A stretch of DNA of 59,528 nt, taken from the IMG/VR virus record IMGVR_UViG_3300003885_000003, positions 1 through 59,528 of that record. The stretch is one strand, 5' to 3'. The stretch comes from a virus. Its lineage: Duplodnaviria > Caudoviricetes. Both the position numbers and the translations under genes were made by a program. Positions 3,338 to 58,041 of the stretch are shown here, piece after piece. Numbering within the stretch: the first letter of the stretch is position 1; each line of letters starts with the position of its first letter. The notes under the pieces are model-generated. The model was not told where the DNA came from. It was given only the letters and a program-made list of their open reading frames with translations, and made no database searches.

Positions 3338-4738
3338 TCATACTTTCCGCGCTTGCCAGTATGACAAATCAACCACTTTATCACCCGCCTGTAACCCGCC
3401 ATCCGGCTCCGTAAACCACTGCACATCAGACCAAATTGGCCTAACAGTATAATAAACACGACGCGGCAAATAACCGTTGATTGTTTCTGCTGCCTGTGAA
3501 GCGAATTGAATGCCGTCTACAGTAGACCAGAATTCTGACTGGACTGGCGTAAATCCATCAGCAAATATAGCGGCTTGTAATGCCGCATTCGGATTGAGGC
3601 TGATTGTTTGTAATTCTACAGATTCATTCCATAGTGCCTGCTGCCAGCTTTCGTCCGGGGGTGGCGGGTCGGTCGGGTAGGGGTAGTTGCGTGATAAGTC
3701 AGCAACTGCGTTCATGTGAGGCTGCGCTAACTCAAAATACTTCCACAATGTGCCAGGCCCACCACTGGTAAAAATTACACTACCTTTTACACGGCCGTCC
3801 CGATATGCGGCCGTCGTTGTTGCGTTGTCTAGCCAGTATTTTAGCACAGCTAGATACCGGTCGATGTCACCATTAAGCGCCTCAGGATGCCGCCAGCCGC
3901 CTTGGGGGTCGAGCCATCCCGACCAGTCAGGCGAAGCGTCGCGCACTACACCTGATTCACCAAATATCCAATCAGGACGCACTCCTGCTGCGGCAAACGA
4001 TTTATCCATTGTTTCCCAACGGCCAGAGTAAAAAGACCACTCGCCAGGCATAACAACATCAGGTTCACTTCGGTCTCGCACGTTGTCTCGTGTAGCCGCC
4101 TGCACATCTAATTCTAGTTGCATTACATATAATTCGTCTGGCGTTTCATGAAAACTAGCACGGGGCGCATTATGATGATAATTATGTGGACTATATTTAG
4201 TACTAGGCGGCATTAAGCCAGTATGATTCCGAACTGGTATATACGGATGATAGCCTAGCAGTGCATCATACATTACGGCCGCCTGAGCTACATCAAGCGG
4301 AATGTCGTTGCCGACGGCCGTCTCTGCGAGAATCATACGAATGTGGGCCAGTTCAGGTTCCTTTCGGTACTCCTCGTACCATACTTTTGCCATTGCTGTA
4401 TGGAGTGAGACCCACCGGATTCGCTCGCTGGCATCCTGGCTGTTGGAAAAAGTCTCGTTGTATTCCTGGATGTAATCGACGTACTGAGCCTCACGCCGGA
4501 ACGTGCCATCGACGAAATTGTTCAGCCAGTCGCGTGCGGGCTGTTCAAAGTCAGCACCAAACGGCGGCAGTGGTTGGTCACCTACCCACCGATACCAGGT
4601 TTTGATCCCTGGGTTCGCCTGCTTTGCTTCACGGCATCGCTCAACACCGAATAGAAACTTCACCACTGCACCCGCGGGCAGCTTCGCCACCGCTTTCGGC
4701 CAATCTTGCGGGCTGTTCTGGATATGAAAACCAATCAT
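3338..4738 (-). CDS. Modular endolysin N-part: glycoside hydrolase-like TIM barrel, Pro linker, accessory domain and first strand of GH25
   Basis: YNE, GYHPY and FGESG motifs typical of clan GH-A; PYPTDPPPP linker; ends VVDLSYWQARKV. Confidence 0.7.
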   Translation of the reverse strand: MIGFHIQNSPQDWPKAVAKLPAGAVVKFLFGVERCREAKQANPGIKTWYRWVGDQPLPPFGADFEQPARDWLNNFVDGTFRREAQYVDYIQEYNETFSNSQDASERIRWVSLHTAMAKVWYEEYRKEPELAHIRMILAETAVGNDIPLDVAQAAVMYDALLGYHPYIPVRNHTGLMPPSTKYSPHNYHHNAPRASFHETPDELYVMQLELDVQAATRDNVRDRSEPDVVMPGEWSFYSGRWETMDKSFAAAGVRPDWIFGESGVVRDASPDWSGWLDPQGGWRHPEALNGDIDRYLAVLKYWLDNATTTAAYRDGRVKGSVIFTSGGPGTLWKYFELAQPHMNAVADLSRNYPYPTDPPPPDESWQQALWNESVELQTISLNPNAALQAAIFADGFTPVQSEFWSTVDGIQFASQAAETINGYLPRRVYYTVRPIWSDVQWFTEPDGGLQAGDKVVDLSYWQARKV

Positions 4739-4785
4739 TATTTTAATCCTCTCTAATATGTAAACCAACAGATAGCTAGAATTAT

Positions 4786-5121
4786 TTAACAGCTAAAACG
4801 GTTTGCTAAGTGAACTTCGTTTACCCACTTTTCCAATTCACATGTCCACTCACCATCATGAAATCTGATGATGTCGCCGCTTACTTCTTTGTATACATTG
4901 CATGCTACACCGTATTTGTTACGTAATGTAACATTTAACGATTGGTAATAATGCTGTACACAATCAACCATCTTTTTCTCATCCATCCAGAATACAGCCA
5001 TTTCACCACGTTCGTTAGAGCTGATATGTTGTTCACATGCTCCAACTTTCAGTACTTCCCGCGCATTTCGCGGTACATGTTTTTTTCGTGCAATCTGCCT
5101 GCACTTTTTTTGCTCAGACAT
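4786..5121 (-). CDS. Hypothetical protein
   Basis: GGAGG SD; in late operon. Confidence 0.7.
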   Translation of the reverse strand: MSEQKKCRQIARKKHVPRNAREVLKVGACEQHISSNERGEMAVFWMDEKKMVDCVQHYYQSLNVTLRNKYGVACNVYKEVSGDIIRFHDGEWTCELEKWVNEVHLANRFSC

Positions 5122-5130
5122 AATAACCTC

Positions 5131-6306
5131 CTACCGGTTATTGCTATCTGTTGGTTTCAGTTTTGTAAAAATCTTGCCCATTTCAGTTATCGGCCCTGAG
5201 CCGTTTCCCTCACTCAAATCGGCAAATCGTTCGTCTCCAGCGTACATTGCCCACCGGTTTACGGCCGTAAATCCGTCTGTCCCGTCGTAAATTTGCTGTA
5301 AGCAGTCGGCACTTGCTGCGTCGTTTTTGCCGCAGGGCGATTTTGAATTGCGAGTGAAGCCAATCTCTGTTAGCCATAGTTGCTGGTCACGGCAGTACGG
5401 CCGTTCATTGCATAGGTCCAAAAACTGTTCATACTCATCTACGTAGCGGCTCACTCGCTCACGATCAAGGTTGCCCACGCCAATTTTGCCATTCAGATCG
5501 AACGCTGGGTAAACGTGGAATCCAATGCCGACCACTTCAGGAGCAAGTATACCATATGCAGCAACGAACTGGTCGAGCCATTTGGAGCCTGTAAATGAAT
5601 TGTGCGCGTTGCTGTTGCCTAGAATGACACGATAATCAATGCCTGCGTATTTCTCTGCTATTTGCTCACGATACCATACGGCGGCATCCTCTGGCGCAGT
5701 GCCGCATTGCCCAAAACTGCGCCAGACCTCACATTCATTGAATACTAGCACATAGTTACCTGGCGCACACAGCGCCTCCTCAAACTGTGCCCTGGTTGGT
5801 GTTGTTGGATGTTTGTCCGGACGAAGCTGAATGATATGTTCGTAGTCTGGCAACTCGCAAGCGTAGTTGTCCCCGTTTGCACCCCAAACGTACTGCCACG
5901 TGCTGCCCAAATCGTTACGTCTGAAATCCACCTGAGAACGGCCGCCAGGCACAAAGCCGAACGCCGCCCCCCTCCGTGCTGTGCTTTGTGGCCCTCTGGT
6001 CGGTGTGGGCGCCGGCGTGTTCGTAGGTCGCAGCGTAGGCGTAGGCTGTGGCGTGTTTGTGGCAACGGCCGTAGGCAGTGGGGTCGATGTAACATCCGGG
6101 GGACAATCGGCAAACGTAACGACCTGTACGCCGTCCTCAGAGTATGTGATCGTAGTGTCTGATTTACATTCAGCGCTGACCGGATTGTAGGCCGTTACGC
6201 TGTTGATATGATTGGTGGATGGCTGTGGCTCATCATTTTCTGAGCGACAACCAACCACGACAAATAACAGCACAGCAAAAAAGACAATTGCATACCTACG
6301 CTTCAT
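5131..6306 (-). CDS. Lipoprotein with Thr/Pro linker and GH-A (GH128-like) glycoside hydrolase domain
   Basis: Signal peptide ending VVVGC; PT-rich linker; VFNE acid/base and LWLTEIG nucleophile motifs; GFHVYP. Confidence 0.75.
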   Translation of the reverse strand: MKRRYAIVFFAVLLFVVVGCRSENDEPQPSTNHINSVTAYNPVSAECKSDTTITYSEDGVQVVTFADCPPDVTSTPLPTAVATNTPQPTPTLRPTNTPAPTPTRGPQSTARRGAAFGFVPGGRSQVDFRRNDLGSTWQYVWGANGDNYACELPDYEHIIQLRPDKHPTTPTRAQFEEALCAPGNYVLVFNECEVWRSFGQCGTAPEDAAVWYREQIAEKYAGIDYRVILGNSNAHNSFTGSKWLDQFVAAYGILAPEVVGIGFHVYPAFDLNGKIGVGNLDRERVSRYVDEYEQFLDLCNERPYCRDQQLWLTEIGFTRNSKSPCGKNDAASADCLQQIYDGTDGFTAVNRWAMYAGDERFADLSEGNGSGPITEMGKIFTKLKPTDSNNR

Positions 6307-6496
6307 CAGCAGGCTTTGCAATTAGCGTGAAGGCAAAAGGTATCATTCCTTCATCATTGAAGCTGCCAAGCTCCAAGACGCGGACAAATGAACCTTGAAA
6401 CATGGTTTTCTCTGCCCATCCCTCAATTGCCTTCGCCACATCTTCTCTGGTTAGTTCTAAGTTTGCTTGCGCTCGTTTTAGACTTTCTGCCATCAT
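6296..6496 (-). CDS. Hypothetical protein
   Basis: Overlaps neighbours at both ends; GGAG SD. Confidence 0.6.
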   Translation of the reverse strand: MMAESLKRAQANLELTREDVAKAIEGWAEKTMFQGSFVRVLELGSFNDEGMIPFAFTLIAKPADEA

Positions 6497-6803: not shown

Positions 6804-7166
6804 CTATACCAAATAACCAAAAACGTCTATCACGGCCGTACATGCGGCCGTTGTGCCTGTGTTCACTGTGATTTGAAAAGTAGCTGCTGCTACTTGCTCT
6901 GTGAATTTTGTGTTGTTGCCATCAAGGACTATGTAATCTGTGCCAAGTGTGGTCAAACTGGACAGATCAACAGTCTGCTTCCAGTTCGTAAAATCGTAGT
7001 CCGTGCCACCGGCCATACTCGCAGAGGGGTCACGGATGACCACATGTGTGATATACGCTACTTTCGCAATTGGCACAGTGTACAGCGTCGTCGATGCGGC
7101 CGTTTTCATATCTACGGCCGGGGTGCTACTCAGTAGCGTTATCGCGTTTTCTCTCAGGTCAGCCAT
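6804..7166 (-). CDS. Putative virion structural protein
   Basis: TTLYTVP beta-rich motif; in late operon. Confidence 0.6.
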   Translation of the reverse strand: MADLRENAITLLSSTPAVDMKTAASTTLYTVPIAKVAYITHVVIRDPSASMAGGTDYDFTNWKQTVDLSSLTTLGTDYIVLDGNNTKFTEQVAAATFQITVNTGTTAACTAVIDVFGYLV

Positions 7167-7402
7167 ACTATTTCTCCATTGTGCGTCACTACATCTCCAT
7201 TGTTTACTAGCGCCATATCAAGGCCGTGAACACGCAGCAGGTTATTACCATCGAATATGAGCAGATCGTTGGTATCTGTCGTCCAGTGAGGTTCACCCTC
7301 AACGGCCGTTAAAATCGTACCTTTTGCAGCAATATTTGACGATAGCCCACTCTTGAATTGTATCTGAAAATCGGTGTCATACAGTTTATTGGTCATCGGC
7401 AT
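7154..7402 (-). CDS. Short tail-fibre-like protein (hyaluronidase/Mtd N-terminal-like)
   Basis: IQFKSG...EGEPHWTTDTNDLLIFDG motif. Confidence 0.6.
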   Translation of the reverse strand: MPMTNKLYDTDFQIQFKSGLSSNIAAKGTILTAVEGEPHWTTDTNDLLIFDGNNLLRVHGLDMALVNNGDVVTHNGEIVWLT

Positions 7403-8845: not shown

Positions 8846-9927
8846 TAAGTACCTCCAAATATCTTTACAGGCGGAGGAAACGCACCCATCGAACGCTTGT
8901 ACCCCTGCACATCTGGCCGGCCATTCAGTCCAACCGATACGCTATTGCCGCTCAATACCCTGATCTCCTCAGTGCTACTAAACGGCGTATGCTGTAAGTC
9001 GCCACTCTCCATCGTAAAGTCATACAGAATCGTGTGCCATGCCCCATCCATGTAAATTTCAAATGTAGGTGGGGAACTGTTCACGACACGGATTGCACGT
9101 TCCACATTGCGGTCATTGCTGCCAATCCGACAGTTAGCGATGTCTTTATTGCTGATGTAAGTCAGGCCGTATCCGGCCGTTGAGCTATCTTTTTCATAGC
9201 CCATGTCTACCCCAGACCTTATGCCGTAATTTATCGGCGATTCGTACCATGCAGAATCAGCAAGGATGAATACGTAATAGCGTTTTGTATCACTTGAAAA
9301 TCCGATGGCATCGGCCGTCGGTGTGGTCGCTAACAGATTGTCACGAGTATCAATCGTGACTTCTAGTCCACCAAGTGTTTCAATTTTAGCATACAGCACA
9401 TTCTTCGTTGCACCATCTAAATCACCATTCCAACCCGCACCATACGCTGTATCAGAAATCATTGCCGCTTGATACTGCGTTACGGCCGTCTCTGGTACGC
9501 TACTGTCCGCAATATTGTCGGTATGTAAAGCCAGATTAAACGCATCACCTGCGACTGGTTGCGGGTCATAGACTGCCTTTGTCATGTAGCCAGCCAGTGT
9601 ATTGGCGCTGAAAGTGTCTGTATCTGCGGCAGCAGCAACGAACGTTTCCCAATCGGTGGCGCTGCCCTGATCCACGCCACTATAAAATGTCTGATTATCA
9701 GGCAGTCGGAAATGATACCTCGCTGCCTGTGTAGCAGCGTCAGGCACTTGCAATGTCAGGCTGAACGTGCCATCGCTATCGCTCACGGCCGTACTGATTT
9801 GATGCTGGTTTATAAATGAGCCACCGGAGAATAAAAACGCGGTCAGCAACGTGGCGCGAACGTTCGTGCCATCTGGGAAATCACTATCCGGGTCTTGCTG
9901 CACTCCTGTGATTATTATCGTTGTCAT
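8842..9927 (-). CDS. Tail fibre / tail-associated protein
   Basis: MTKAVYDP and DTAYGAGWNGD...TKN motifs; N-terminal ~100 aa paralogous to the upstream gene. Confidence 0.65.
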   Translation of the reverse strand: MTTIIITGVQQDPDSDFPDGTNVRATLLTAFLFSGGSFINQHQISTAVSDSDGTFSLTLQVPDAATQAARYHFRLPDNQTFYSGVDQGSATDWETFVAAAADTDTFSANTLAGYMTKAVYDPQPVAGDAFNLALHTDNIADSSVPETAVTQYQAAMISDTAYGAGWNGDLDGATKNVLYAKIETLGGLEVTIDTRDNLLATTPTADAIGFSSDTKRYYVFILADSAWYESPINYGIRSGVDMGYEKDSSTAGYGLTYISNKDIANCRIGSNDRNVERAIRVVNSSPPTFEIYMDGAWHTILYDFTMESGDLQHTPFSSTEEIRVLSGNSVSVGLNGRPDVQGYKRSMGAFPPPVKIFGGTY

Positions 9928-10232
9928 GCTACTGCCGCTGCGACGAACGTCTCCCAGACTGTCGAACTGGCCTGATTTACGTCGTCATAAAAAGATTGGT
10001 TGTCCGGCAACCGGAAATGATACCGTGCCGATACACTAGCATCGTCTGGTACTTGCAGCGTAAGGCTAAATGTGCCGTCACCATTATCGACGGCCGTACT
10101 GATTTGATGCTGGTTTATTAATGACCCACCTGAAAACATGAACGCAGTTTGTAACGTAGCACGAATCTTTGTACTGTCTGGGAACGTGCTGTCTGGGTCT
10201 TGCTGCACTCCTGTAATTGTGATTGTTGTCAT
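9924..10232 (-). CDS. Stand-alone paralog of the N-terminal attachment domain of the adjacent fibre
   Basis: MTTITITGVQQDPDS...WETFVAAA closely matches the N-terminus of 8842..9927. Confidence 0.7.
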   Translation of the reverse strand: MTTITITGVQQDPDSTFPDSTKIRATLQTAFMFSGGSLINQHQISTAVDNGDGTFSLTLQVPDDASVSARYHFRLPDNQSFYDDVNQASSTVWETFVAAAVA

Positions 10233-10694: not shown

Positions 10695-11468
10695 TTACGG
10701 AGTAGCGGTGCTAGTTGGCACGGCCGTATCCGTCGCTGTAGGTATCAATGTCGGCGTAGTCGTTAATGTAGGCGTGTTACTCGGTTCAGGCGTGGCCGTA
10801 ACAACCACAGTAATCACTACTGGCGTATTTGTTGGTGTGTTAGTCGGCGTTGCTGTAGGCAGTGGTGTGGACGTGACCGTAGGCGTAGCTGTCCAGGCTG
10901 CCGCAGTCGCTGTCTGAATTACGGCCGTTAACGTCGCTGCTATGTCCGGTGTACTCGTCGGCATCGGTGTGCTGGTCATCGTCGGCGTTGGTGTCCATGT
11001 TGCACAGTTACACGACGTTGCCGTGGGCAGCGGCGTGTTTGTATTTGTCGCTGTGGGCAATGGGGTCGATGTCCAGGCTGCTGCTGTTGCCGTTTGTGCA
11101 ATGGCCGTTATCGTTGCCAGATAGTCCGGTGTGTTCGTCGGGGTGGGTGTAGCTGTACTTGTCGGCGTTGCACTTGGAGTAATACTCGGTGTCACTGTCC
11201 ACGTCGGATAGGGCGTATACGTCGGCAACGGCGTATAGGTCGGCAAGGGGGTCTGCGTCGGAACGGCCGTTGCCGTTATTGTTGGTGGCGTTATCGGTGT
11301 GCTAGTCGGTGGAAGAGGTGGGCCAGCTATATCGCTGGTAATTATTGGCAGGTAAGCACGGCCGTCCTGCTGGGCAGCTAGTCGCGATACGGCAAACGCA
11401 GCAGCAAGCCACAACAATGCACCGACAACTACTGCAATCAATAATGCCCGCAATCCGCCGTTAGTCAT
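10695..11468 (-). CDS. Secreted or membrane Thr/Pro-rich mucin-like protein
   Basis: Signal or TM segment, YLPII motif, long TPT repeats. Confidence 0.7.
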   Translation of the reverse strand: MTNGGLRALLIAVVVGALLWLAAAFAVSRLAAQQDGRAYLPIITSDIAGPPLPPTSTPITPPTITATAVPTQTPLPTYTPLPTYTPYPTWTVTPSITPSATPTSTATPTPTNTPDYLATITAIAQTATAAAWTSTPLPTATNTNTPLPTATSCNCATWTPTPTMTSTPMPTSTPDIAATLTAVIQTATAAAWTATPTVTSTPLPTATPTNTPTNTPVVITVVVTATPEPSNTPTLTTTPTLIPTATDTAVPTSTATP

Positions 11469-12699: not shown

Positions 12700-13812
12700 T
12701 TATACCACAACAATATTACGGAGCGGGTTTACGTCTGAGCTTTTTATTTGCAAATGATAGGGAGCCGTGAATATTGATTGCTCTATGTACTGCGGTTGAC
12801 GGCCGTAACCACTAGTATAAATCAGTCTGTCTGGTCGTGTATTCCAATGCAGCAGTTCACGGCCTGCCTCATCAAATATTCGGTCGCCAAAATCTGCCGG
12901 GTTGCGCTGATAAGTCAGGTATTTATTTGCTGCAAGCGTATTAAAATTACTATCAAATGTTTCTGCCTGTTTGTAAATTAGCTGCCTGTTTTCGTAGACC
13001 CCAGCAACCCAGCGATTATTTGCTGCGCCCCCTCTATCTGCAAGATCACGAATGACATTCCAAGCAGGTCGATCACCATTATAATATTGCTCTGCCTGTG
13101 TGGTATTTGCATCAATATTTATTGCACTTGTATTTATTACACTGTTGGGGTCTGCTGCTAAAATGGCAGAAATGATTGCACTAAGATTCGCTGTACTACT
13201 GCTAATAGTCTGTGAATAATTCCACCACATCATCATATGTGCATACCCGGCACAGCGGATACTCAACGATGGAGGAGCGCCACTGCTGGAGGTCATCACT
13301 TCGTCAATTGAAATCCTGCTCATTTCAGTAAGTGCGGTATTGGCCTCAATGTTTGCAGCAGTGGTTGTAATCTGTCCCCCGCTAATCGTTGCCTGTTTTA
13401 TGCCATAGCTATCTTGACTAGCGGTGTCATTGAGCGTAATTGTTGTCTGAGCGCCAACTGTTGGTGGATTTGTCGAAGTATCTAACGCAGAGTAAACGTA
13501 GTAAATTCGGTTAGCCATAGGTTTAATTGATTTGCTGCGTGACATTCCACCTTCTTGCAGCGTTAGCGACTGAACATACCCATTCCAGATCACCTGACCG
13601 CTTGGCGAACGCCAGACAATATCACGAATCAAACCAGCCCGAAACCACGAACGCAAATAATCCGTATCACCACGTAACACAAATTTACATGTATCGAAAC
13701 CGTATGAGGCGCTAACAATATGCGATTCGTTCTCAGTTTGCAATCGCTCATTGAACGAGTCGATGCTTTGCCTGATAACTGGTGCTAATGCGGTGATACT
13801 AATTTGCTGCAT
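12700..13812 (-). CDS. Baseplate hub / Tal-like minor tail protein
   Basis: Position after the distal tail gene; IWNGYV and SQDSYGIK motifs. Confidence 0.65.
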   Translation of the reverse strand: MQQISITALAPVIRQSIDSFNERLQTENESHIVSASYGFDTCKFVLRGDTDYLRSWFRAGLIRDIVWRSPSGQVIWNGYVQSLTLQEGGMSRSKSIKPMANRIYYVYSALDTSTNPPTVGAQTTITLNDTASQDSYGIKQATISGGQITTTAANIEANTALTEMSRISIDEVMTSSSGAPPSLSIRCAGYAHMMMWWNYSQTISSSTANLSAIISAILAADPNSVINTSAINIDANTTQAEQYYNGDRPAWNVIRDLADRGGAANNRWVAGVYENRQLIYKQAETFDSNFNTLAANKYLTYQRNPADFGDRIFDEAGRELLHWNTRPDRLIYTSGYGRQPQYIEQSIFTAPYHLQIKSSDVNPLRNIVVV

Positions 13813-16800
13813 TAGTTTGCTCCTCTACCAGTTAGCCAGCGGTCAGTAGCGCCAACGGTGATTGAGTGAAGCGCTTCCGGCTTACTTATCCAAATGCTGC
13901 CACCTGCCGTTGACGTGCTTGCAGTGAGTATCCAAATACGCTGCTGCTGCTGTGTCATTAACGCAGCAGCACCATTGGAATCGACACGATATGATGATTT
14001 GAAAAGACCAGTCGCCGTTTTTTCGGCGACTGCTTTAATGAGTAGCTTGGGCAATGTCACGCTGTCGATTGTCATTCGTGAGCCGTTGCTAATAGCGCTG
14101 GTAGTTGTGTTAGCGGTGTCTTTCACATCAACATACATCAGATTAGTTGGCAACAAAAACAGGTCATACGCGTAAAAATCAGCATCTGCTGCGCTTGATG
14201 TGATTTGCAAAACGATGCTGGTCTCATCTCCTAATTCGTCGCTGGTAAATAGTGATGAAACAGGCAGAGACACCGGTTCCTCGAACTCTATTAGTTCATG
14301 ATCGGTTGTGCTAGTAGTTGCTTGAATGTCGGTGAGCGAACTAATGCCACCTGAACCAGATACAATCTTTAGCCTGACTGATACTTCCCCGGCACTTCCA
14401 CCTGTCTGTTTGCCACGTAAAAATGCACGAAAAGTACCATAATAATCACGTGCAACGGTAGTCGCTAAAGTCAACTTGACGCGGTCTATAAGATTGTTCA
14501 AGCCCGCACCGGCTGAGGCGACGCTTGCATCGAAAAAGGCAGCGCGTCCTGTCGGGGCACTCAAATTATCAGCGATACTCGTTGCGCTATCAGTATCATC
14601 TGTTACCGACACGGTAACGCCGTCTGGTTGCTGCTCATCTGCAAAATTAAGATAGGCGCGAAACGTCGTATGATTTGTGACTGGCATAATGCCCGCCAGC
14701 ACACGATTAGCATATAGCTGTGGATTGCTGCCGCCCGGCCCGCCGTTGTCACCACGCGACCGCAATTTCATCTGTACAATGCTGTCCAGTGTACCGGCTG
14801 TTTGTGCTGCTGCAATTTCGGCATACGGCGTTACGGCCGTGTAAATGTCGCGTGTTTGTTGTATCGGATTGGTAAATGTACCGGTCAATGCTGATACCCT
14901 GGCGCGAACCCAATATGCGGTAATGGCATTTATTGCTGTTGTGGTCCAATCACTTGGAATTTCCCATGTGACGGAATTCATGCCAACTAGTGAAAATTGA
15001 GACGTGCTGTCTTGTGTCGTAATCGTTGTCCATGCCCCATTGTAATATTCCCAAATAATTGTATAGCTCGTTGTCGAGCTGGCCCCTGTAGACAAATCAA
15101 AAACAAGTGAATTAAATGGGCCAGTGTCGCTCAATGCAGTATTTATACCAAAATAAACAGCATCATTCAATGCGGCCGTTGCCGGAAATAACGTCAATGG
15201 AAACGAGCCAGGATACAAATTAGCAAAAACACCGCCATCGTCGTTTTTGATGTGCGTAAGTTGTGCCTCATTGTGTTTATTTGCCACAAATACAGGATTT
15301 GTACTGCTGGCTTCCTGCCCCACATTGAACGATGTGGTTGTCAGGCTCAATATTTGCCCATTATCAGCCACATATTTATTCGCTGACGTGCAAAGAATAT
15401 CTTCAACATAGCCACCTGGTAACGTGCTGTCTACTGTCCAATTATTGCCCTGGTCTGATGATTTTAGAATATTGCCATTATCACCAGCATAAAACACACC
15501 AGAGCAATAACGCAGTGATCGTACATCATTTGTTGGTGTGGTATCAGCTACCTCCCATGATGTCCCAGAATCTTCAGATGAGATAATTTGCCCGTCATCC
15601 CCACCGAAAATAACACTAGACACCTCAGCCAATGCACGAACATTGCCAGCCGGAAATGTACTATTTACTTCCCACGTTGCGCCGACTCCAAGCGGAGCGG
15701 CATACTCAATAATAAGCGTTGCTGCATTACCAGGAGATTTATCATAGGTATCTGCGTCACGATCACGGCCTGAAACTGAAAACTCAATAATAATTACAAT
15801 GTCATTGCCAGAAGCAAAGCCAGCACGATTAATAACTTCCTGAATTGGCGCTGAAATGTCCACCGTATCATAGGAAAGTCCACTCTTCCACGTTTCGACA
15901 CCAGACCATGTAGCAACGGCCGGTGTCTTTGTCCTATCAGTAATGTTGTTTGCAGTGCTGGTAAATGTTGGTGCGTCGTCAATATCTTCACAGTAAATCA
16001 ATGCTGTCCCTGACGTGCCGCTATCGGTGTCCTCTGCTATAAATCTGATTTTTGCGCTGTCGATTGTGCTGCCCTGTGCAATCGTTACTCCCTGAAAACG
16101 CAGACCGATTTTACGAGAGGTTTTATTAAACATGTCCAGGTCATTACTGGTCAAATCCATTGTGCCGCTTGTTTCCTCTGCGTCGTCTGTTGAGGTAGCT
16201 ATTTGAACACTGAATTCAGTAGTCGTGAGTGGGGATGCCGTGCGTAAAATTTCACCAGTGCCACCTGCGTATATTCTACCAGATGCCACTTGAAGCAAAC
16301 TATACACCTGTCCCGATGGTAAAGTATCGTCTATACCCCATGTGTTAGTCTCATCCTTTTTGTAAATCTGGCTGGTATCAGCAGCATATATTTCGCCACT
16401 GGTCGCTTCTAATAATTCGTAAACCTGTCCTGCTGGGCCAGTCGTTTCAACCGACCATGTGCCACCACTGGTCAATTTTAGAATACGGCCGTTTTCGCCA
16501 AATAGAATATCACCATTAGCCAATAGAGTTGCGCCGGTCACATTGCCGGAAACTATAACCGGGGCTGTTGTTTTAACAGCCCAAGTATCCAGGCTCAAAT
16601 CGTAAAACAGAATTTCACTAGCACCTCCAGCATAAATATCACCATTAGCAAGCTCGACAAAACAGAAAATATAACCTGTTGGCAGTGTTGTTTCTACACC
16701 CCAACTTGTCGCGAAATCCCATACTTGTTGAGCGCTGATGGCAACACTTTTCTGTACCGTACCAGGCACAGCCCCCAGCCATGCCGGTTGCCGATTTATT

Positions 16801-17306
16801 TGCACCACAAAAGGTAACAATTTTTGATTGCGAAGTGGAGCTTCATCAAACCACGTGTTTGGCTTAATGATGTTTCCTTGACTAATAAGTGCATATCCTG
16901 TATTTGTTTCACCGTCTAACTTTCTGGTAATATACACAGGACTATTGTTGAAACGGTTCAGCCAGTATCGCGGCGCACGATATAACAGCAGTTCTTCAAG
17001 CTGATCAATGCGCCGGATCATGTCGTCTGTATTTGAGAATTCAAGCACGAATCGGAAGCTTTCAATCACATTATCAAACACTGCATAACGTAAAACTTGT
17101 CCATCCGCGATAGCACTGTTTCCGTATGACCCGCCCCCTTTGAACGTAGAAGATCGGCCTGTCCATCCGTCAGAGAGCAATTTGAACCCAGGGGATGCCA
17201 TAAAATCGACACTCAGATCACCATCGGTTACAGTGAAAACCGAATTACCAACCGGCCCGATTGGCTTTTCTAAACCAAAATAACTATCCCAATAATTTGT
17301 TGTCAT
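13812..17306 (-). CDS. Large distal-tail / tail-tip protein with beta-propeller and carbohydrate-binding-like inserts
   Basis: Repeated GxIYAG...W blades; SSDQGNNW Asp-box; DDAEE...GLRFQGVTIAQGSTI domain. Confidence 0.65.
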   Translation of the reverse strand: MTTNYWDSYFGLEKPIGPVGNSVFTVTDGDLSVDFMASPGFKLLSDGWTGRSSTFKGGGSYGNSAIADGQVLRYAVFDNVIESFRFVLEFSNTDDMIRRIDQLEELLLYRAPRYWLNRFNNSPVYITRKLDGETNTGYALISQGNIIKPNTWFDEAPLRNQKLLPFVVQINRQPAWLGAVPGTVQKSVAISAQQVWDFATSWGVETTLPTGYIFCFVELANGDIYAGGASEILFYDLSLDTWAVKTTAPVIVSGNVTGATLLANGDILFGENGRILKLTSGGTWSVETTGPAGQVYELLEATSGEIYAADTSQIYKKDETNTWGIDDTLPSGQVYSLLQVASGRIYAGGTGEILRTASPLTTTEFSVQIATSTDDAEETSGTMDLTSNDLDMFNKTSRKIGLRFQGVTIAQGSTIDSAKIRFIAEDTDSGTSGTALIYCEDIDDAPTFTSTANNITDRTKTPAVATWSGVETWKSGLSYDTVDISAPIQEVINRAGFASGNDIVIIIEFSVSGRDRDADTYDKSPGNAATLIIEYAAPLGVGATWEVNSTFPAGNVRALAEVSSVIFGGDDGQIISSEDSGTSWEVADTTPTNDVRSLRYCSGVFYAGDNGNILKSSDQGNNWTVDSTLPGGYVEDILCTSANKYVADNGQILSLTTTSFNVGQEASSTNPVFVANKHNEAQLTHIKNDDGGVFANLYPGSFPLTLFPATAALNDAVYFGINTALSDTGPFNSLVFDLSTGASSTTSYTIIWEYYNGAWTTITTQDSTSQFSLVGMNSVTWEIPSDWTTTAINAITAYWVRARVSALTGTFTNPIQQTRDIYTAVTPYAEIAAAQTAGTLDSIVQMKLRSRGDNGGPGGSNPQLYANRVLAGIMPVTNHTTFRAYLNFADEQQPDGVTVSVTDDTDSATSIADNLSAPTGRAAFFDASVASAGAGLNNLIDRVKLTLATTVARDYYGTFRAFLRGKQTGGSAGEVSVRLKIVSGSGGISSLTDIQATTSTTDHELIEFEEPVSLPVSSLFTSDELGDETSIVLQITSSAADADFYAYDLFLLPTNLMYVDVKDTANTTTSAISNGSRMTIDSVTLPKLLIKAVAEKTATGLFKSSYRVDSNGAAALMTQQQQRIWILTASTSTAGGSIWISKPEALHSITVGATDRWLTGRGAN

Positions 17307-32786: not shown

Positions 32787-32840
32787 CCTATAGTATAACA
32801 TAAAAAGTGAGGACGGCCGTTTGTCAACAACGCGATATAT

Positions 32841-42143: not shown

Positions 42144-42155
42144 TTCTATTTCCTT

Positions 42156-42597: not shown

Positions 42598-42603
42598 ATC
42601 TAT

Positions 42604-42669: not shown

Positions 42670-42690
42670 CTTTTATGTGAAGTGACTAGC

Positions 42691-42891: not shown

Positions 42892-42916
42892 GATTTCTCG
42901 GTTCTTTCGTTTTCAG

Positions 42917-45103: not shown

Positions 45104-45292
45104 TGCTTTGCTCCTAGATGGCTGTTGGCTCTCTTGTCCCACTTCCTGGCGTGTTCCATGCTGTTGCTCAGGTAATCAAGCGGGGGCTTTGGTACACAGT
45201 CACGGCGCAGCAGCCTACACCGCAATTCGTAGCTGATGGCATCGCGCAGGAAGTCACGGCGATTATTATTGTACACACGATACACGATACTG

Positions 45293-45538
45293 TTATTCAT
45301 TTGGCGAAAACCTTGTAGCTGTGGCGGTTTCTAGGCTAACTGTATGTCCCGTTTTTGCAACGTGTTTTCTGATTTCACGCTGTCCACGTCGTCTATCGGT
45401 ATGGTCCGAAAATATCCAGTAGCACTGTAGGCACATAGCGTAGTAGCTGGTTATGCCAAGTCGAGTAGACTTTACTTTGTTCATGTTTTGTCCCAATGGC
45501 TGGCTGGCTGGTAACAAAAAACACCTGTACCTTAGCAT
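45293..45538 (-). CDS. Small Zn-finger protein
   Basis: CLQC...HVAKTGHTV. Confidence 0.6.
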   Translation of the reverse strand: MLRYRCFLLPASQPLGQNMNKVKSTRLGITSYYAMCLQCYWIFSDHTDRRRGQREIRKHVAKTGHTVSLETATATRFSPNE

Positions 45539-45704
45539 GGCGGTTTTGCCGAACGAAGGTCTTATAACTCACTGGTTAGATGAGTGTCCAAAACCGACAT
45601 GCTAAGAAACAAGTGTTTCTACTGCTGCCCTCGTTCTTGTTTTATCCGCTCACCGGGAACCACCCGACAATCACAGTATAGCATAGCAAAACGAGATTTG
45701 CCAA
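45515..45704 (-). promoter_or_regulatory. Promoter and structured terminator leader upstream of the replication genes
   Basis: TTGGCA-18-TATACT; long stem cttagcatgtcggtttt/aaaaccgccatgctaag ending in T6. Confidence 0.6.
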
Positions 45705-46332
45705 CACCACGATGTTAGACACTAACAACCTTCAGCTTTTCAGCTATGCTTTCCATATATAGCACACAGGCATCATGGTCGCCTGAGTACAAGGTCGCAG
45801 AATCGGCGTTTTCATAATTAGCCACTACTTTATTCAGTTGTAGATAAATGCTTAACGCAAAATCCAAATTGATTAAATCTCCACCAATATCGTAAACCCA
45901 CATTTTATTGCTCCTCTGAATTATGCGTTGCGTTTGTAACCATCGCAGACATACCACTCAGGCTCACAGTTATCCCATGTCCCGTTGGGGCCATCCGGCC
46001 GTTTACAATACCACTCTAAAAAAGGACTTTTATCATTACCTGCTGCTGGTTCTTCATACCAATATGCACAATTGGCACAGCATCGCCGATTTAAGTACCG
46101 GTAGTTTGTCACGCCTTTTAGTTCTATCATTTCGCCTCGTTTTCTTGGGCAGTACGCTATAGCGTGTCTAACGCAGCTTGGATATATCGTTCCATCCAAT
46201 CTGCAATTTCTTTATTAGTTACGTTACCTGTAGGCAGCCACATAGACTTTGTGTTAATTGCTGTAGAATAAACGGTTACTACTGGCGGTGTTCGTTTTCC
46301 CGACTTGATTTTCACGCTAAAATTTAGCTCCA

Positions 46333-47181
46333 TCATATCTCCATTTTAGTCTGTCGCAGATGCACGTCTAAATCAGGCCGTGCATTATGCGACCTGTCAC
46401 ATATCCATAGTATCTCTGTGCGGCTTTCGCCCCGCAATTGCTTACTGGCTGACATTACAGTCTCAATCTCTATACGTTCCTGTGCTGACTGAGGCTCAAC
46501 ATCCTGCGCGTAGTTGCTCAGGATGTAGCTGCCTGTAGCATCGTCTAACGTCGTACAAAGAGCCGCCCAATCTGCGGCCGTGTAGCCGCTATAATGACCC
46601 TGTTGTGAGCCAGGGTAAGGCGGATCCAAGTAATGCAACGTTTGCGGCGAATCCCACCTCTCTATGAACTTCAGCGCGTCGATGTTGTCCACAAATACAC
46701 CGCGTAGCCGGTCTAGCTGTGCCGGCAGTCTGTGCAGCTTACGCTGCCATGTACTGGCGTGATTACGACTAACTTGGCCAAAACTCCATCCTGCATTAGC
46801 TTTATTTGCAAATGATTGATTGAGGTTCACAAACACGGCCCATGCAATCTCCATATCCGAATAGTCACCAGGCGCTTTCCATATTTCACAAGCCAGCCGG
46901 TGTTCTTCCTGAGCGTACAATGTAAGGTCGAGTCGTCGTTCAAGTTCGGCCGGCTGGTCACGGGCCACACGGTAAAACGTAGTGATAACGCCGTTGTTGT
47001 CGTTAATGGCCTCGCGGTAGTAATGTGACGACCGGCGCACAGGGCGCGGCTTAGCAAACAGCAACGCTGCGCCACCTGCGAAGGGTTCGCTGTATACCGT
47101 GTGTGGTATACGATTAACCTGTTTCAGCAGGTGGCGCATTATGCTCTGTTTGCCGCCGTAATAACTGAGGAGTGGTTTCAT
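46333..47181 (-). CDS. Dam-like (D12 class) N6-adenine DNA methyltransferase
   Basis: YYGGK, YSEPFAGGAA, EAIND, YLDPPY, ILSNY, EILW. Confidence 0.92.
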   Translation of the reverse strand: MKPLLSYYGGKQSIMRHLLKQVNRIPHTVYSEPFAGGAALLFAKPRPVRRSSHYYREAINDNNGVITTFYRVARDQPAELERRLDLTLYAQEEHRLACEIWKAPGDYSDMEIAWAVFVNLNQSFANKANAGWSFGQVSRNHASTWQRKLHRLPAQLDRLRGVFVDNIDALKFIERWDSPQTLHYLDPPYPGSQQGHYSGYTAADWAALCTTLDDATGSYILSNYAQDVEPQSAQERIEIETVMSASKQLRGESRTEILWICDRSHNARPDLDVHLRQTKMEI

Positions 47182-47965: not shown

Positions 47966-48020
47966 AATTCACGCCCTTTAACGGCCGTTACCACGCGATA
48001 ACGGCCGTTTATGCTCCCGC

Positions 48021-50613: not shown

Positions 50614-51008
50614 CCGGCTTACCCACGAACGCATCCGACGACGTGAAGAAGCTCAACCCTGGTCTATACGGCCCATCGCGAACTGCTGTGCCGGCTGCAA
50701 CCAGCACGTTGGAGGACAAAATGGCGCTGATGTTAGATGCCCTGGGGTTTTCGTATCAGCGTGAATACAAGTTTCACAAAGACAGAAAATAGCGCTTCGA
50801 CTTCGCGATACCGAATGGCAAAATTGCCATAGAGTGCGAGGGGGGCGTGTGGACAAATGGCCGGCACACCCGCGGTTACGGTTTTATCGCTGACTGTGAC
50901 AAATACAATGAAGCGATCTTTGCCGGCTGGCGAGTGTTCAGGTTCACGGCCGATCACATACGTAACGGCCGTGCCTGGGAGATGCTTAGGAGATTACGCT
51001 ATGATTGA
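50610..51008 (+). pseudogene. Vsr/DUF559-like endonuclease interrupted by an in-frame TAG
   Basis: REYKFHKDRK*RFDFA...IAIECEGGVW..GRHTRG.GF..DC.KYN.A...GWRVFRFT; TAG at 50790 sits where the family has Trp. Confidence 0.8.
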
Positions 51009-51020: not shown

Positions 51021-51272
51021 ATGATTATCGATAATTTATTAGTGTTAGATATAGCCAACACATTTTTGGATATTAAAATATTGTTGTCTAGTAAATACAG
51101 CGTTGGCAGATCGGATGGACAACCGCTGTCTTTGTCCGATCAATTGATGATAGATAATATTTTTACAAATGCCGACAAAATAACCGATCAGCTAATCAAC
51201 GATATAACGAAGCAAAATAAAGATAAGTTGGTGGCATCCGTTTTGTTATGGGTAAGTAAAGATTTGCAATGA
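51021..51272 (+). CDS. Hypothetical protein
   Basis: AGGAG SD. Confidence 0.55.
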   Translation: MIIDNLLVLDIANTFLDIKILLSSKYSVGRSDGQPLSLSDQLMIDNIFTNADKITDQLINDITKQNKDKLVASVLLWVSKDLQ

Positions 51273-51985
51273 ACCTCATACTACTCGATTTATTCTGTGG
51301 TGCTGGTGGCGGCTCAGTCGGCTTTCATCACGCTGGCTTTGATGTAGTTGGGGTAGACATCAATATGCAAAAACGCTATCCGTATGATTTCCTGCAAATG
51401 GACGCGCTTGATGCACTGCGGAAACTGATAGCCGGTGACGGTCTGTTATTCGGCAGCAGGTGCATCTACCTGAGCGACATTGCTGTTATCGCGGCATCGC
51501 CGCCGTGTCAGGTGTACAGCGTTACGGCTTCTCTGAGCAATGGCAACCATCCTGATTTGGTGGCTATTACTCGTGATGCACTAATAGGGACTGGCAAACC
51601 ATATGTTATCGAGAATGTGCCTGGATCGCCGTTGATAAATCCGCTAATGTTATGTGGTACGATGTTTGGCTTGCGCGTTATTCGCCATAGGTTATTTGAA
51701 TGCAACCCATCAATTTGGTTTCCCCCGGCAATTTGCAACCACTGGGGTACTGCCTCATCGTCTGGTCGAGGCAAAAAACCAACAAACGTGCCTGGCTATG
51801 TGCCTGGCACACTGATAAATTACGATTTCATTACTGTAGCAGGGAGTGACTATATTGTGGCTGACGGCCGTATTGCAATGGGTATTGACTGGATGACAAA
51901 AAAAGAACTGTCGCAGGCGATCCCACCCGCATACACTGAATTTATCGGTAAGCACTTAATACGTGTATTATTTAGCGAGGTATAA
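51269..51985 (+). CDS. C5-cytosine DNA methyltransferase (compact phage type)
   Basis: LDLFCGAGG, ASPPCQ, IENV, RHRLFE, QAIPPAY. Confidence 0.9.
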   Translation: MNLILLDLFCGAGGGSVGFHHAGFDVVGVDINMQKRYPYDFLQMDALDALRKLIAGDGLLFGSRCIYLSDIAVIAASPPCQVYSVTASLSNGNHPDLVAITRDALIGTGKPYVIENVPGSPLINPLMLCGTMFGLRVIRHRLFECNPSIWFPPAICNHWGTASSSGRGKKPTNVPGYVPGTLINYDFITVAGSDYIVADGRIAMGIDWMTKKELSQAIPPAYTEFIGKHLIRVLFSEV

Positions 51986-52694: not shown

Positions 52695-52931
52695 ATGACA
52701 AACACAAGAAACCAGCAACTCATGATTGAAATGGTGAATTGGATAGCTGAATATTTGTTGGAGCACGGCTATCCACCCGCTGCCCCGGACATTGCAGCCG
52801 GCATGGAAAAGAGCTTGACAACTGTATACGCGCTGCGGCGCGAAGCAAGAGCATTGAAAATGTTGGATTATGACACGGCCGTTTCCAGGTCATATCAAGT
52901 GCCAGGTGTATTTTTGGTGGATAAACGATAA
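52695..52931 (+). CDS. LexA-type N-terminal winged-helix regulator without peptidase domain
   Basis: I..YL.EHGYPP...DIA.GM..S..TV........L..L......SRS. Confidence 0.75.
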   Translation: MTNTRNQQLMIEMVNWIAEYLLEHGYPPAAPDIAAGMEKSLTTVYALRREARALKMLDYDTAVSRSYQVPGVFLVDKR

Positions 52932-54208: not shown

Positions 54209-54312
54209 AACGGCCGTATCTCTTTTCAGGAGACACGGCCACAATCGGGTCGTTGTCGTGTTAGCGGGAGTGCAACACAACTATAGCGACAACGACCTAC
54301 AGGAATTATAGC

Positions 54313-54718: not shown

Positions 54719-56245
54719 ATGAAGTATATTCTACTCCTTACTCTGATTTTAGCTTCATGCAGCGCCGCGACTACTGGCAGTCCATCCGAACTGCGCCAGC
54801 AGGCAGCGCAAATTGAAAATGCAACTGCGCAGGCGGCGACTTACGCGCAGGCGGCAGAGTTGGAGCGCCAGCAGAGTACCCGCGGCGCGGCAACGGTAGC
54901 GGCGATGCAAATCACCATTGAGGCGGCTAATGTCGCTCTGGCAATGCAACGTGACGCGGCGACGGCAACGGCCGTATCCGCACGTCGTGAGAGTGTAGCA
55001 ACAATGGAAGCGGCTCAGGCTCAGGCAACAGCCACGGCCGTTGCCAAAGTGACTGATGACGCACAGAATGAACTTCTATTTTTGCAAGGACTGGAATACG
55101 ACCGGCAACGGCTACAGCAGGAAATTGTACGCGGGTACGCATGGGCGGCCGTGCAAATTCTGGCGGTAACGGCCGTTGTTGGAGCAATCATGCTGATGAT
55201 TCTTACCATCGCTCGACGGCCACAAAATGACCAGGCTGCCCCGCAGTCAGTACAAATTCACGGCCTAACGCTCATCCAGGATACAAGCCGGCAAAGCCCG
55301 TTTGAACGGCTGGTAGCACCTAATTCAGCGCCCTGGGTGCGCGTGGGGCCAGCCCGGCCGGTTGTAAAGAATGCGCCACTAATGTTACCAGCGCCAGCAA
55401 TCACGCTGCCAGTATTACCTACTGGTCACGTATTGATTGCTGGTGAAACTGGTAGCGGCAAATCAACGGCAATGAAAGCTGTGTTGGCATCGCGGGAAAA
55501 CGTGACGGTTTTGGACCCACACGCTGCGCCGAGCGAGTGGTCTGGCGCACACGTTCTAGGTGGCGGCCGTAATTTCGATGCTATCAATGAACACATGAAT
55601 TACATGAGACGGGTCTTGTCTGAGCGATACGCTGCGCGGAACAATGGTCAACGTAGTTTCGATGCAATAACTGTTGCCACCGACGAGATGCCGGCAATTG
55701 TGTCTGCGTTAGGTCGTGGAATTGGAGATGCCTGGCGCGAGTGGTTGCGAGAAGGTCGCAAAGTGGGCTTATTTTTTGTAGTATCGACACAAAGCACACG
55801 GGTAAAAACACTTGGGATAAGAGGTGAGGGTGATTTACTCGAAAACTTCGCTGCTGTATTGGAGTTGGGCAAAGTCGCCCAGGGCAATCACCGCGATCTG
55901 ACGGCTAGACAAGATCGCCCGGCCGTGCTGACAACCATTAACGGTGTGCAGCCGGTTGTTATTCCGTATCACGATCATGATCATGAGCAACAACATCAGT
56001 CACTGTATACAGCGCCACCGGCTTTATTTGACGATCCTACCGTAACTGGCTTGGAAACTGCCAAAGGCAATATTACGGCTGAACAATTCAGAATAGCATC
56101 GCGATTACTTAGGCAAAAAACCCAGACAGGACGGCCGTCAGGCAACGCGATTCAGAGCGTGGTGTGGGGTTATTCAGGCGGCAATGCGTATTATTATTTG
56201 GAGCAAATAAAAAGAGAGATTGAAATCAATACCGAGGGCACATAA
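54719..56245 (+). CDS. Membrane-anchored FtsK/TraB/HerA-like P-loop ATPase
   Basis: ILASC lipobox, Ala/Gln coiled coil, TM, HVLIAGETGSGKST, VLDPH, VATDE, LREGRKVG...STQ, wHTH-like C-terminus. Confidence 0.85.
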   Translation: MKYILLLTLILASCSAATTGSPSELRQQAAQIENATAQAATYAQAAELERQQSTRGAATVAAMQITIEAANVALAMQRDAATATAVSARRESVATMEAAQAQATATAVAKVTDDAQNELLFLQGLEYDRQRLQQEIVRGYAWAAVQILAVTAVVGAIMLMILTIARRPQNDQAAPQSVQIHGLTLIQDTSRQSPFERLVAPNSAPWVRVGPARPVVKNAPLMLPAPAITLPVLPTGHVLIAGETGSGKSTAMKAVLASRENVTVLDPHAAPSEWSGAHVLGGGRNFDAINEHMNYMRRVLSERYAARNNGQRSFDAITVATDEMPAIVSALGRGIGDAWREWLREGRKVGLFFVVSTQSTRVKTLGIRGEGDLLENFAAVLELGKVAQGNHRDLTARQDRPAVLTTINGVQPVVIPYHDHDHEQQHQSLYTAPPALFDDPTVTGLETAKGNITAEQFRIASRLLRQKTQTGRPSGNAIQSVVWGYSGGNAYYYLEQIKREIEINTEGT

Positions 56246-57026: not shown

Positions 57027-57277
57027 TGATTGACACTATCATGCAAACGGCCGTAACGTGGTCAGAATTAACGCGGTTACTTGTGGCTGCCGGGTGGGTT
57101 GTTTTCTGCATGTATTGCCTAATTGTTATTCGTGGTTTTTGGAATTCGTGGTTTGCGGCTAGTCCAGTCACTGCTGCGCTGCTAGGCTGGCCGCTGTTGG
57201 TGTTAGGCTGTGCGTTTTGGGGCATCATGGCTTTGGGCGGCGTGGCCGTAATTATTAACAGCGTATATTTTTATTAA
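57027..57277 (+). CDS. Small membrane protein
   Basis: Two TM helices; GAGG SD. Confidence 0.6.
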
Positions 57278-57290
57278 ATGGAGGTGGATA

Positions 57291-57473
57291 ATGAATGATG
57301 GCACAAAGGTCAGAATAACCCAACTCTCACTTATGGTCGGGATCATCTTAGCAGTGACTGGCTACATGCTCATGATCCAATACAACGGGTTGAGCCTAAT
57401 TGTACTGCCAGTCGGCACAGGGATGACATGGTTTGCGGTGGCAACGGCCGTATACCGTAGGTTAAAGCAATGA
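57291..57473 (+). CDS. Small two-TM protein
   Basis: GGAGG SD. Confidence 0.65.
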   Translation: MNDGTKVRITQLSLMVGIILAVTGYMLMIQYNGLSLIVLPVGTGMTWFAVATAVYRRLKQ

Positions 57474-57649
57474 ATGACAGCACAAAGGTAAAACTAAACC
57501 AATTAGCATTCCTAACCAGTATCTTCATAACTGCGACTGGTTGCAAGCTCGTAATCCAATACAATTACTTTGGCCTGCTTGTGCTGATAATTGGCATAGG
57601 GTTGCTATTTTTTGCGGTGACAATAGCCGCAAACTGCGAATTCAAATAG
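57470..57649 (+). CDS. Small two-TM protein, paralog of the previous gene (not in ORF track)
   Basis: MNDSTKVKLNQL...IQYN versus MNDGTKVRITQL...IQYN; ATGA overlap. Confidence 0.65.
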   Translation: MNDSTKVKLNQLAFLTSIFITATGCKLVIQYNYFGLLVLIIGIGLLFFAVTIAANCEFK

Positions 57650-57669
57650 TGATTAAAAAAAGGAGAATA

Positions 57670-57933
57670 ATGGACAACTATTTACTCGAAGACTTAGCAG
57701 AAGTTCGGCATGACATATGGTTGCGTGAACAAATAGCAGAAGTTCAGCATGACATATGGTCACATTGGATGAAATACATGTTTTCGCAAGGCGTAATGCA
57801 GGATGGTTCTTGGCTTATGCCAGAAGAAAAGGTCTTGCGTTGGAAGCGACAAATGAAAACCGCTTATTCTGATCTAACAGAAAATGAGCGCGAATCTGAT
57901 AGGGATCAAGCTGACAAGATTCTGGAAATTTAA
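57670..57933 (+). CDS. Conserved phage hypothetical protein
   Basis: AEVQHDIWSHWMKYMFS...RWKRQM.T.YSDL.E.E.ESDR; AGGAG SD. Confidence 0.75.
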   Translation: MDNYLLEDLAEVRHDIWLREQIAEVQHDIWSHWMKYMFSQGVMQDGSWLMPEEKVLRWKRQMKTAYSDLTENERESDRDQADKILEI

Positions 57934-58041
57934 TTATAATTGATGGTATACGGCCGTATACCGCAGATTCAAATAGTGAGTTGTCCAGTATTACTGGACA
58001 ACTCAGGAGAGTATAAAAATGGTAAAACGACAGTTAAAGCA

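Follow-up and report, generated by a model that had tools for sequence, protein, structure and literature searches.

A highly iterated palindrome shared by a tailed phage and a clade of Chloroflexota suggests a host-imposed imprint

Introduction

Why does the genome of a tailed phage, in which palindromes are otherwise strongly avoided, carry 57 perfect copies of one eight-base palindrome, ACGGCCGT? The genome in question is IMG/VR record IMGVR_UViG_3300003885_000003, analysed here over its entire length of 59,528 bases (the window). A first-pass annotation had likened the word to HIP1, the highly iterated palindrome (HIP) of cyanobacteria, and had proposed, for a likely Chloroflexota host, an analogous system built on the CGGCCG core of the word (methylation-coupled repair, nucleoid-protein binding or recombination), with co-occurrence of a C5 cytosine methyltransferase as one check. 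The function and origin of HIP1 itself have been open for about three decades, and all knowledge of it comes from a single phylum (PMC4390886, PMC5861425, PMC13756078). The answer that we favour, with reasonable though far from full confidence, is that ACGGCCGT is the HIP of the host clade, the Promineifilales, and that the phage has been partly ameliorated to it by a trans-acting process. That the motif is an imprint imposed by the host, by whatever means, we regard as very probable.

Results

Abundance of the palindrome in the phage genome

An exact search recovered the 57 copies between positions 3791 and 57957, a density of 958 per Mb. This agrees with the earlier count of at least 55, and all 17 positions listed at that stage were found again. 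The expectation of about one copy or fewer by chance also held, with a mean of 0.70 (sd 0.82, maximum 3) in 100 dinucleotide-preserving shuffles and 0.62 under an order-0 Markov model; models of order 2 and order 3 gave 1.49 and 3.45. The observed number is thus 81 times the shuffle mean and 16.5 times the order-3 expectation. No other 8-mer is as frequent in the genome as ACGGCCGT, and those next in rank are shifted forms of the same word. Its CGGCCG core occurs 110 times against 21.5 expected, an enrichment of about 5-fold, and 103 of the 110 cores have an A and/or T flank. The many one-mismatch copies that had been noted before amount to 55, of which 46 deviate at the outermost position and nine at an inner one; beyond one base on either side, the flanks of ACGGCCGT have no consensus in the phage. 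Copies are spaced along the genome as expected for a Poisson process (variance/mean 1.0-1.3; Kolmogorov-Smirnov p = 0.72), and therefore a site-specific function of the copies is not indicated.

Six other 6-mer palindromes, each expected 7-22 times, are absent from the phage altogether, namely CTGCAG (22 expected), CGTACG (14), CCATGG (13), CGATCG (13), AGATCT (12) and CCCGGG (7). These gaps are probably the footprint of host restriction systems.

Reading frames and peptides

The enrichment acts at the DNA level. Open reading frames (ORFs) contain 52 of the 57 copies, and these are distributed over all three frames, not confined to one, with 28 copies read as TAV, 19 as xGRx and five as RP, the remaining five being intergenic. 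The gene set behind these frame counts is a crude one of 109 ORFs, and the coding total of 54 copies counts overlapping ORFs twice; in 200 synonymous-codon shuffles, which preserve all proteins and codon usage, this total fell to 2.48 +/- 1.32 (maximum 6), and 200 codon-order shuffles gave 1.06 +/- 0.98. Hence the enrichment survives the Markov, synonymous-codon and codon-order controls alike. The spelling ACGGCCGTN is used for 30 of the 33 TAV tripeptides, and the synonymous last base of xAC-GGC-CGN is T in all 19 cases, compared with a background of 31.5% (p = 3e-10), which bears out the earlier claim of a pressure on DNA rather than on protein. The pressure has nevertheless altered protein sequences, because TAV itself is over-represented (33 against 9.1 expected, a 3.6-fold excess).

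Since the word is a palindrome, its copies have no strand. Those read as TAV lie at 4314-4321, 5261-5268, 6065-6072, 7302-7309, 9482-9489, 9785-9792, 10090-10097, 10720-10727, 10921-10928, 11263-11270, 14833-14840, 17327-17334, 22733-22740 (the sole copy within the 4.2-kb ORF 18754-22953), 27022-27029, 28978-28985, 29656-29663, 31795-31802, 36103-36110, 38353-38360, 38604-38611 (in a portal-like gene), 41539-41546, 43959-43966, 43983-43990, 52875-52882, 54968-54975, 55034-55041, 55169-55176 and 57047-57054. In frame 1 the copies encode DGRV (3791-3798), YGRD (6832-6839), DGRA (11358-11365 and 44777-44784), YGRQ (12799-12806), NGRI (16485-16492), DGRT (24389-24396), HGRQ (28602-28609), NGRS (31277-31284 and 43496-43503), NGRP (32813-32820), YGRV (33958-33965, within an MT-A70 methylase gene), DGRL (36984-36991), NGRT (38259-38266), NGRN (39806-39813), NGRF (39885-39892), DGRR (42751-42758), DGRI (51864-51871, within a C5 methylase gene) and YGRI (57950-57957). 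In frame 2 they encode ERPY (5397-5404), RRPS (24733-24740), LRPY (44410-44417), GRPS (56131-56138) and IRPL (57444-57451).

Intergenic copies and hairpins

All five intergenic copies fall in hairpin stems, as the first-pass annotation had proposed for a ribozyme stem and for terminator-like stems. The copy at 35419-35426 pairs with a near-copy to form one of the stems of an intergenic type II hammerhead ribozyme on the plus strand (35412-35474; RF02276, 48.3 bits against a gathering score of 37). The other four likewise lie within predicted stems: 47981-47988 and 48001-48008 are the two arms of a 13-pair hairpin (-23.2 kcal/mol, z -3.3), 50965-50972 pairs with a near-copy about 20 nt upstream (-20.2 kcal/mol, z -2.7), and 54210-54217 forms a terminator-like hairpin with a near-copy (z -4.2). 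We read this placement as opportunistic reuse of a ready-made palindrome.

Distribution of the palindrome among prokaryotes

We scanned one genome per prokaryotic species for clusters of three ACGGCCGT copies within 30-nt gaps. The output consisted of sparse chance matches in high-G+C actinomycetes and of Chloroflexota loci dense in the motif; of the 120 loci in all, 31 were dense, and 18 of the 19 dense loci with a title shown were from Chloroflexota, labelled Ardenticatenaceae, Ca. Leptovillus affinis, Ca. Promineifilaceae, or Anaerolineae, Chloroflexia or Chloroflexota metagenome-assembled genomes (MAGs). The sole titled dense locus outside the phylum, L043, comes from a MAG labelled Bacillota bacterium and has eight copies in 8 kb, with ACGGCCGT as its most frequent 8-mer; the bin may be mislabelled, or another lineage may bear the motif. 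In five of the Chloroflexota genomes that the scan found, ACGGCCGT was counted 8,294-15,492 times each against 50-209 for the reversed control word; the resulting 1,700-2,100 per Mb fall within the range published for HIP1 (PMC4390886). Both the predicted Chloroflexota host and the use of the word as a host-assignment signature are thereby supported, and the density in these candidate hosts is at HIP level.

Such densities are concentrated in one order. A phylum-wide sample of Chloroflexota yielded HIP-level density in 2 of 251 genomes; in the order that holds the Ardenticatenaceae-labelled MAGs and Ca. Leptovillus, which the NCBI taxonomy places in the Promineifilales, 58 of 121 sampled genomes reached 500 copies per Mb or more, and these motif-rich ones have a median near 1,520 per Mb and values up to about 2,200. 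Genomes flagged as unpublished in these tallies (G178, G043, G150 and G232 in the phylum, G285 in the order) are all motif-poor and enter the denominators only. With NurA identity to the copy in G001 as a rough phylogenetic ruler, 42 of the 46 genomes at 55% or above were motif-rich, compared with 13 of 61 below. Thus, the motif-rich state is largely clade-coherent, with exceptions.

Some genomes of the order use another word. Four members of the order (G269, G271, G288 and G324) have few ACGGCCGT and carry TGCCGGCA at 931-1,806 per Mb. This word is the reversed reading of ACGGCCGT and is itself a palindrome, with a GCCGGC core; in the 9.2-kb loci L219 and L220 it is the top 8-mer (16 and 20 copies) and occurs in several frames. 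The pair constitutes a HIP switch inside one order.

Elsewhere in the phylum sample, many Chloroflexota have 0-5 copies of ACGGCCGT against 20-650 of the control word (for example G077, G065, G104, G116 and G222), as if the word were a common restriction target there. One locus in G001, L013, with three motif clusters and 44% G+C within a genome of 54% G+C, was considered as phage-related and rejected, as its clusters are a 21-nt tandem repeat, each unit of which holds one ACGGCCGT (about 2760-2840 and 5810-5970 of the locus).

Fine structure of the motif in hosts and phage

We compared the phage with 340 kb from four host genomes. The frame ranking TAV > xGRx > RP is the same in hosts and phage, one-off variants are almost confined to the outer positions in both, and inner one-off words are depleted in both (observed/expected 0.17-0.78 in hosts). 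An A/T preference at the next flank (AACGGCCGTT) is common to three hosts and the phage. The phage differs in degree, as its density is about half that of the host samples (958 against 1,600-2,380 per Mb), the share of CGGCCG cores that are complete octamers is 52%, compared with 61-84% for the hosts, and CGGCCGT without the outer A is in 2-4-fold excess. The motif set of the phage therefore looks less mature than that of the hosts.

Phage relatives and other viral contigs

The Mu gpT-like major capsid protein (27095-27991, minus strand) served as the query for finding relatives. Metagenomes contain many homologues of it, among them two named sequences from Chloroflexi and Anaerolineales MAGs. 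When IMG/VR was searched with the capsid or the terminase as a single protein, no relatives appeared; an alignment-based search gave 32 related loci. The four closest relatives (69-72% capsid identity) have 819-1,194 ACGGCCGT per Mb, and those at 54-64% identity have none. When the latter group is pooled with one relative at 48%, CGGCCG and other G+C-rich palindromes prove to be avoided (3 against 29-46 expected). Aligned motif sites coincided with those of motif-rich relatives in 0 of 9 and 0 of 4 cases (0 of 13 together), in divergent alignments of only 5.4 and 4.1 kb. From these sequence comparisons, the motif appears to have been acquired within the phage lineage and not to be ancestral. 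Six more IMG/VR contigs, essentially without homology to the phage, are motif-dense, and two carry the alternative palindrome. The motif has accumulated independently both in sister lineages of the phage and in viral contigs unrelated to it.

Methylases and the motif

The proposed coupling of a C5 methyltransferase with the CGGCCG or GGCC core was not upheld. Within the order, the C5 family PF00145 has members in 28 of the 58 genomes rich in the motif and in 19 of the 63 poor in it (Fisher p = 0.06), and among the five richest genomes it was found in two and missing in G001, G002 and G004, although MAG incompleteness weakens this and every other methylase absence given here, and specificity is unreadable from sequence. 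Vsr was found in none of five motif-rich genomes. The phage encodes a small C5 cytosine DNA methyltransferase of its own (51269-51985, plus strand; FCGAGG and SPPCQ as motifs I and IV). The complete motif-rich relative G371 (88 CGGCCG sites) lacks a homologue, and the motif-free relative G374 (3 CGGCCG sites in 38 kb) has one of 64% identity; this enzyme therefore does not travel with the motif; accumulation of ACGGCCGT is independent of the phage's own C5 methylase.

Other methylases were considered in turn. N4/N6-family methylases occur in all five of the richest genomes, some with the SPPY typical of N4-cytosine enzymes, and no orthologue is common to all five. With incomplete MAGs and specificities that sequence does not reveal, a cognate N4-cytosine enzyme is possible. 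D12-class methylases were rejected as the driver, being present in 105 of 121 order genomes whatever the motif state. The same applies to a module of NurA with an adjacent N4/N6 methylase, since the nuclease NurA is a housekeeping protein found in 108 of 121 genomes regardless of the motif and the adjacency is sporadic. A conserved methylase of about 670 aa present in all five rich genomes has the DPPY of adenine-type enzymes and also sits beside NurA in motif-poor G262. The NurA gene abuts or overlaps varied N4/N6 methylases (about 670 aa with DPPY, about 330 aa with SPPY) in loci L147, L131, L207, L208, L237 and L238. One hint in favour of coupling is that the C5 methylase of motif-rich G003 can be aligned along its entire length with M.HaeIII, which recognises GGCC. 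The main text of the Nanomotif preprint mentions neither the motif nor Chloroflexota.

Other features of the phage genome

The genome belongs to a tailed phage with a G+C content of 45.7%. The start of the window recurs on the plus strand as a terminal repeat at 59437-59528, the record is assigned to the direct-terminal-repeat class, and we take the genome to be complete because its first 60 bases reappear at 59437. A portal-like gene, a terminase and a GH25 lysozyme are present. Besides the C5 enzyme, there is a D12-class N6-adenine-type DNA methyltransferase with DPPY (46333-47181, minus strand) and an MT-A70 family DNA methyltransferase with DPPW (33529-34557, minus strand); three methyltransferase classes in one phage suggest a heavy investment in anti-restriction. 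No tRNA genes were found in the genome, and no integrase, resolvase or rve transposase was detected; a search for the Mu transposase family PF02914 was uninformative, its control having zero matches anywhere. For two long ORFs, 42917-45142 (741 aa) and 13812-17306 (1,164 aa), neither Pfam nor PHROG gave a match at the thresholds applied, and a 9-kb piece (37000-46000) has no megablast match among GenBank phages.

Discussion

Proposed mechanism

The process that we propose would be directional and would act on DNA in host cells, genome-wide and independently of position, and in trans on any DNA replicating there. It would convert near-cognate words into the octamer, with the CGGCCG core fixed before the A/T flanks and within the limits of protein constraint, and non-coding copies would then offer ready-made material for hairpin stems. 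As to how the imprint is made, a ratchet of biased repair or gene conversion is in our view about as likely to be right as wrong. A role in chromosome architecture, or accumulation driven by DNA uptake, fits the phage poorly because no integrase, resolvase or rve transposase was detected in it and no prophage copy was found in the 121 host genomes. A bolder version is that the Promineifilales evolved a HIP system independently, in which a trans-acting repair or conversion generator works without C5 methylase or Vsr, rewrites any resident DNA and has a specificity module that can be swapped from ACGGCCGT to TGCCGGCA; this we put forward tentatively, as a possibility that is more probably wrong than right.

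Alternative explanations

The main rival to a trans-acting host process is selection on the phage for motif density, where host machinery would treat ACGGCCGT-dense DNA as self or handle it better; the reader could be a nuclease that such sites attenuate, as Chi does, a nucleoid protein, or a factor of recombination or repair. It would account for the proteins altered to make copies, for the convergence of unrelated viral lineages on ACGGCCGT, and for a 5-fold enriched CGGCCG in a genome that strongly avoids palindromes otherwise. Moreover, the cyanobacterial literature reports that selection maintains HIP1 (Xu et al. 2018, PMC5861425) and that it raises the efficiency of transformation and recombination (bioRxiv 10.1101/2024.09.10.611283; PMC13756078). 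However, no candidate reader protein was found, random spacing and sites that are not conserved between sister phages fit selection on number only, and a single process common to both is the simplest explanation for the identical frame ranking and one-off spectrum of host and phage. We consider selection unlikely, yet far from negligible.

Methylation-coupled maintenance is a less probable account still, in which an orphan methyltransferase of the host modifies the CGGCCG or GGCC core and repair guided by that methylation both generates and maintains sites, in the phage as in the chromosome. HIP1 does co-occur with orphan methylases of CGATCG and GATC (PMC4390886), and the M.HaeIII-like enzyme of G003, the N4/N6-family methylases of all five richest genomes (some with SPPY) and the avoidance of ACGGCCGT by many Chloroflexota and sister phages, like that of a common restriction target, would all suit it. 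Against this stand the presence of PF00145 in only about half of the motif-rich genomes and its absence from three of the five richest, the missing Vsr, the want of a shared N4/N6 orthologue, the D12 and NurA-adjacent enzymes that are respectively near-universal and sporadic, and a phage C5 methylase uncoupled from the motif. Even less can be said for a DNA-uptake-sequence drive, with an octamer preferred by the host competence machinery that builds up as biased uptake and recombination spread it. Uptake sequences reach densities of this order, copy pairs do form intergenic hairpins, and such a role has been proposed for HIP1 (PMC13756078); an apparently non-integrating phage, though, offers little access for homologous replacement and yet has half the host density, which makes this drive very improbable. 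Finally, an artefact of composition, of codon or dipeptide usage, or of picked-up host DNA has next to no probability, since none of the dinucleotide, Markov, synonymous-codon and codon-order controls reproduces the enrichment and copies lie in capsid-module, portal, terminase-region and tail genes with homologues in motif-free phages.

The preferred reading, a host HIP imprinted in trans on the phage, has to face several points that weigh against it. No driving enzyme or binding protein has been identified, so that the ratchet is reached by exclusion, and its classical form, a C5 methylase with Vsr, was tested and found unsupported. Density-dependent selection on the phage would yield the same patterns, and the selection reported for HIP1 adds to that argument. 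No link to a particular host was found: a comparison of phage positions 23001-43000, one third of the phage, with the 121 order genomes gave no CRISPR-spacer link, only 26-45-nt matches on motif-bearing stretches and weak matches in G361. A capsid search of the same 121 genomes gave no prophage copy; its matches in two of them were rejected as prophages, being weak (38% and 28% identity) and in genomes that are both motif-poor. The G+C content of the phage lies below the 53-58% of the host samples. Its lifestyle is judged from absences, with small ORFs mostly lacking annotation, and CheckV puts its completeness at 44%, terminal repeats notwithstanding. In addition, the short, divergent alignments limit the case for site turnover, and the location of all five intergenic copies in hairpin stems makes a local role for some of them possible.

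Significance

A second, unrelated clade with a different word and with internal word switches makes comparative tests of HIPs possible. That unrelated contigs, and a complete phage that seems not to integrate, bear the imprint constrains the mechanism, as whatever makes a HIP seems to act on any cellular DNA, without chromosome context and, here, without a C5 methylase. If the bolder version with a swappable generator is true, the phage imprint would be the first natural experiment that separates action on any intracellular DNA from explanations based on chromosome architecture or DNA uptake. In practice, the density of the octamer gives a sharp marker that needs no alignment: it can assign phages and other mobile elements to these filamentous Chloroflexota of activated sludge and reveal foreign DNA in their genomes.

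Comparison with known systems

Our literature search, which left subscription journals and supplements outside its range, found work on HIPs in cyanobacteria only. The accessible parts of the literature on HIP1 and cyanophages describe no such imprint, and we found no published report of a host palindrome imprinted on a phage.

Among repeats of other kinds, REP and MITE-like elements are also palindromic, repeated and able to form hairpins, but they are longer (20-40 nt), imperfect and extragenic and have conserved flanks, unlike ACGGCCGT, with 52 of 57 copies in ORFs and no flank consensus. Chi-like hotspots are orientation-dependent and strand-skewed, whereas ACGGCCGT is a perfect palindrome, identical on both strands. 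In Escherichia coli, Dcm and Vsr carry out very-short-patch repair at CCWGG, with a bias that converts near-cognate words into the cognate site. The process that we propose would be a mechanism of the same kind; it differs in needing no C5 methylase, and Vsr was found in none of the five motif-rich genomes. The DNA uptake sequences (DUS/USS) known from Neisseriaceae and Pasteurellaceae are over-represented short words that are tolerated in coding frames and form hairpin pairs between genes (see also PMC1939737). They share with ACGGCCGT the genome-wide excess, the tolerance in coding frames and the paired intergenic hairpins, but are non-palindromic and depend on competence. A non-integrating phage is a poor substrate for a drive by uptake.

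The closest likeness is to HIP1 (GCGATCGC), as the first-pass annotation had supposed. Both are octameric palindromes present at hundreds to thousands of copies per Mb (300-2,700 per Mb for HIP1 in cyanobacteria; PMC4390886), both occur in coding and non-coding DNA and in all frames with central deviations disfavoured, and both are clade-wide with exceptions and replaced variants. In the broad sense, then, ACGGCCGT behaves as a HIP, with hyper-abundance, spread over all frames, a clade distribution with replacements and disfavoured central one-offs. The switch to TGCCGGCA resembles the replacement HIPs of cyanobacteria (GGGATCCC, TCGATCGA and others; Elhai 2015, Table 2), where the main palindrome is lost and another stands at comparable density, except that TGCCGGCA is the exact reversed reading of the main motif. 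The differences from HIP1 are in the core, which is CGGCCG and not CGATCG (found 0 times against 12.7 expected in the window), in the phylum, and perhaps in the enzymes: HIP1 has its orphan methylases DmtC and DmtA, and no methylase family or orthologue was seen to track ACGGCCGT in the incomplete MAGs. HIP1 proper is further marked by site conservation above background among related genomes and by a periodicity of 10-90 kb; among the phages, none of the 13 sites in the very divergent alignments is shared. And unlike HIP1, the palindrome of the Promineifilales is documented here on a phage.

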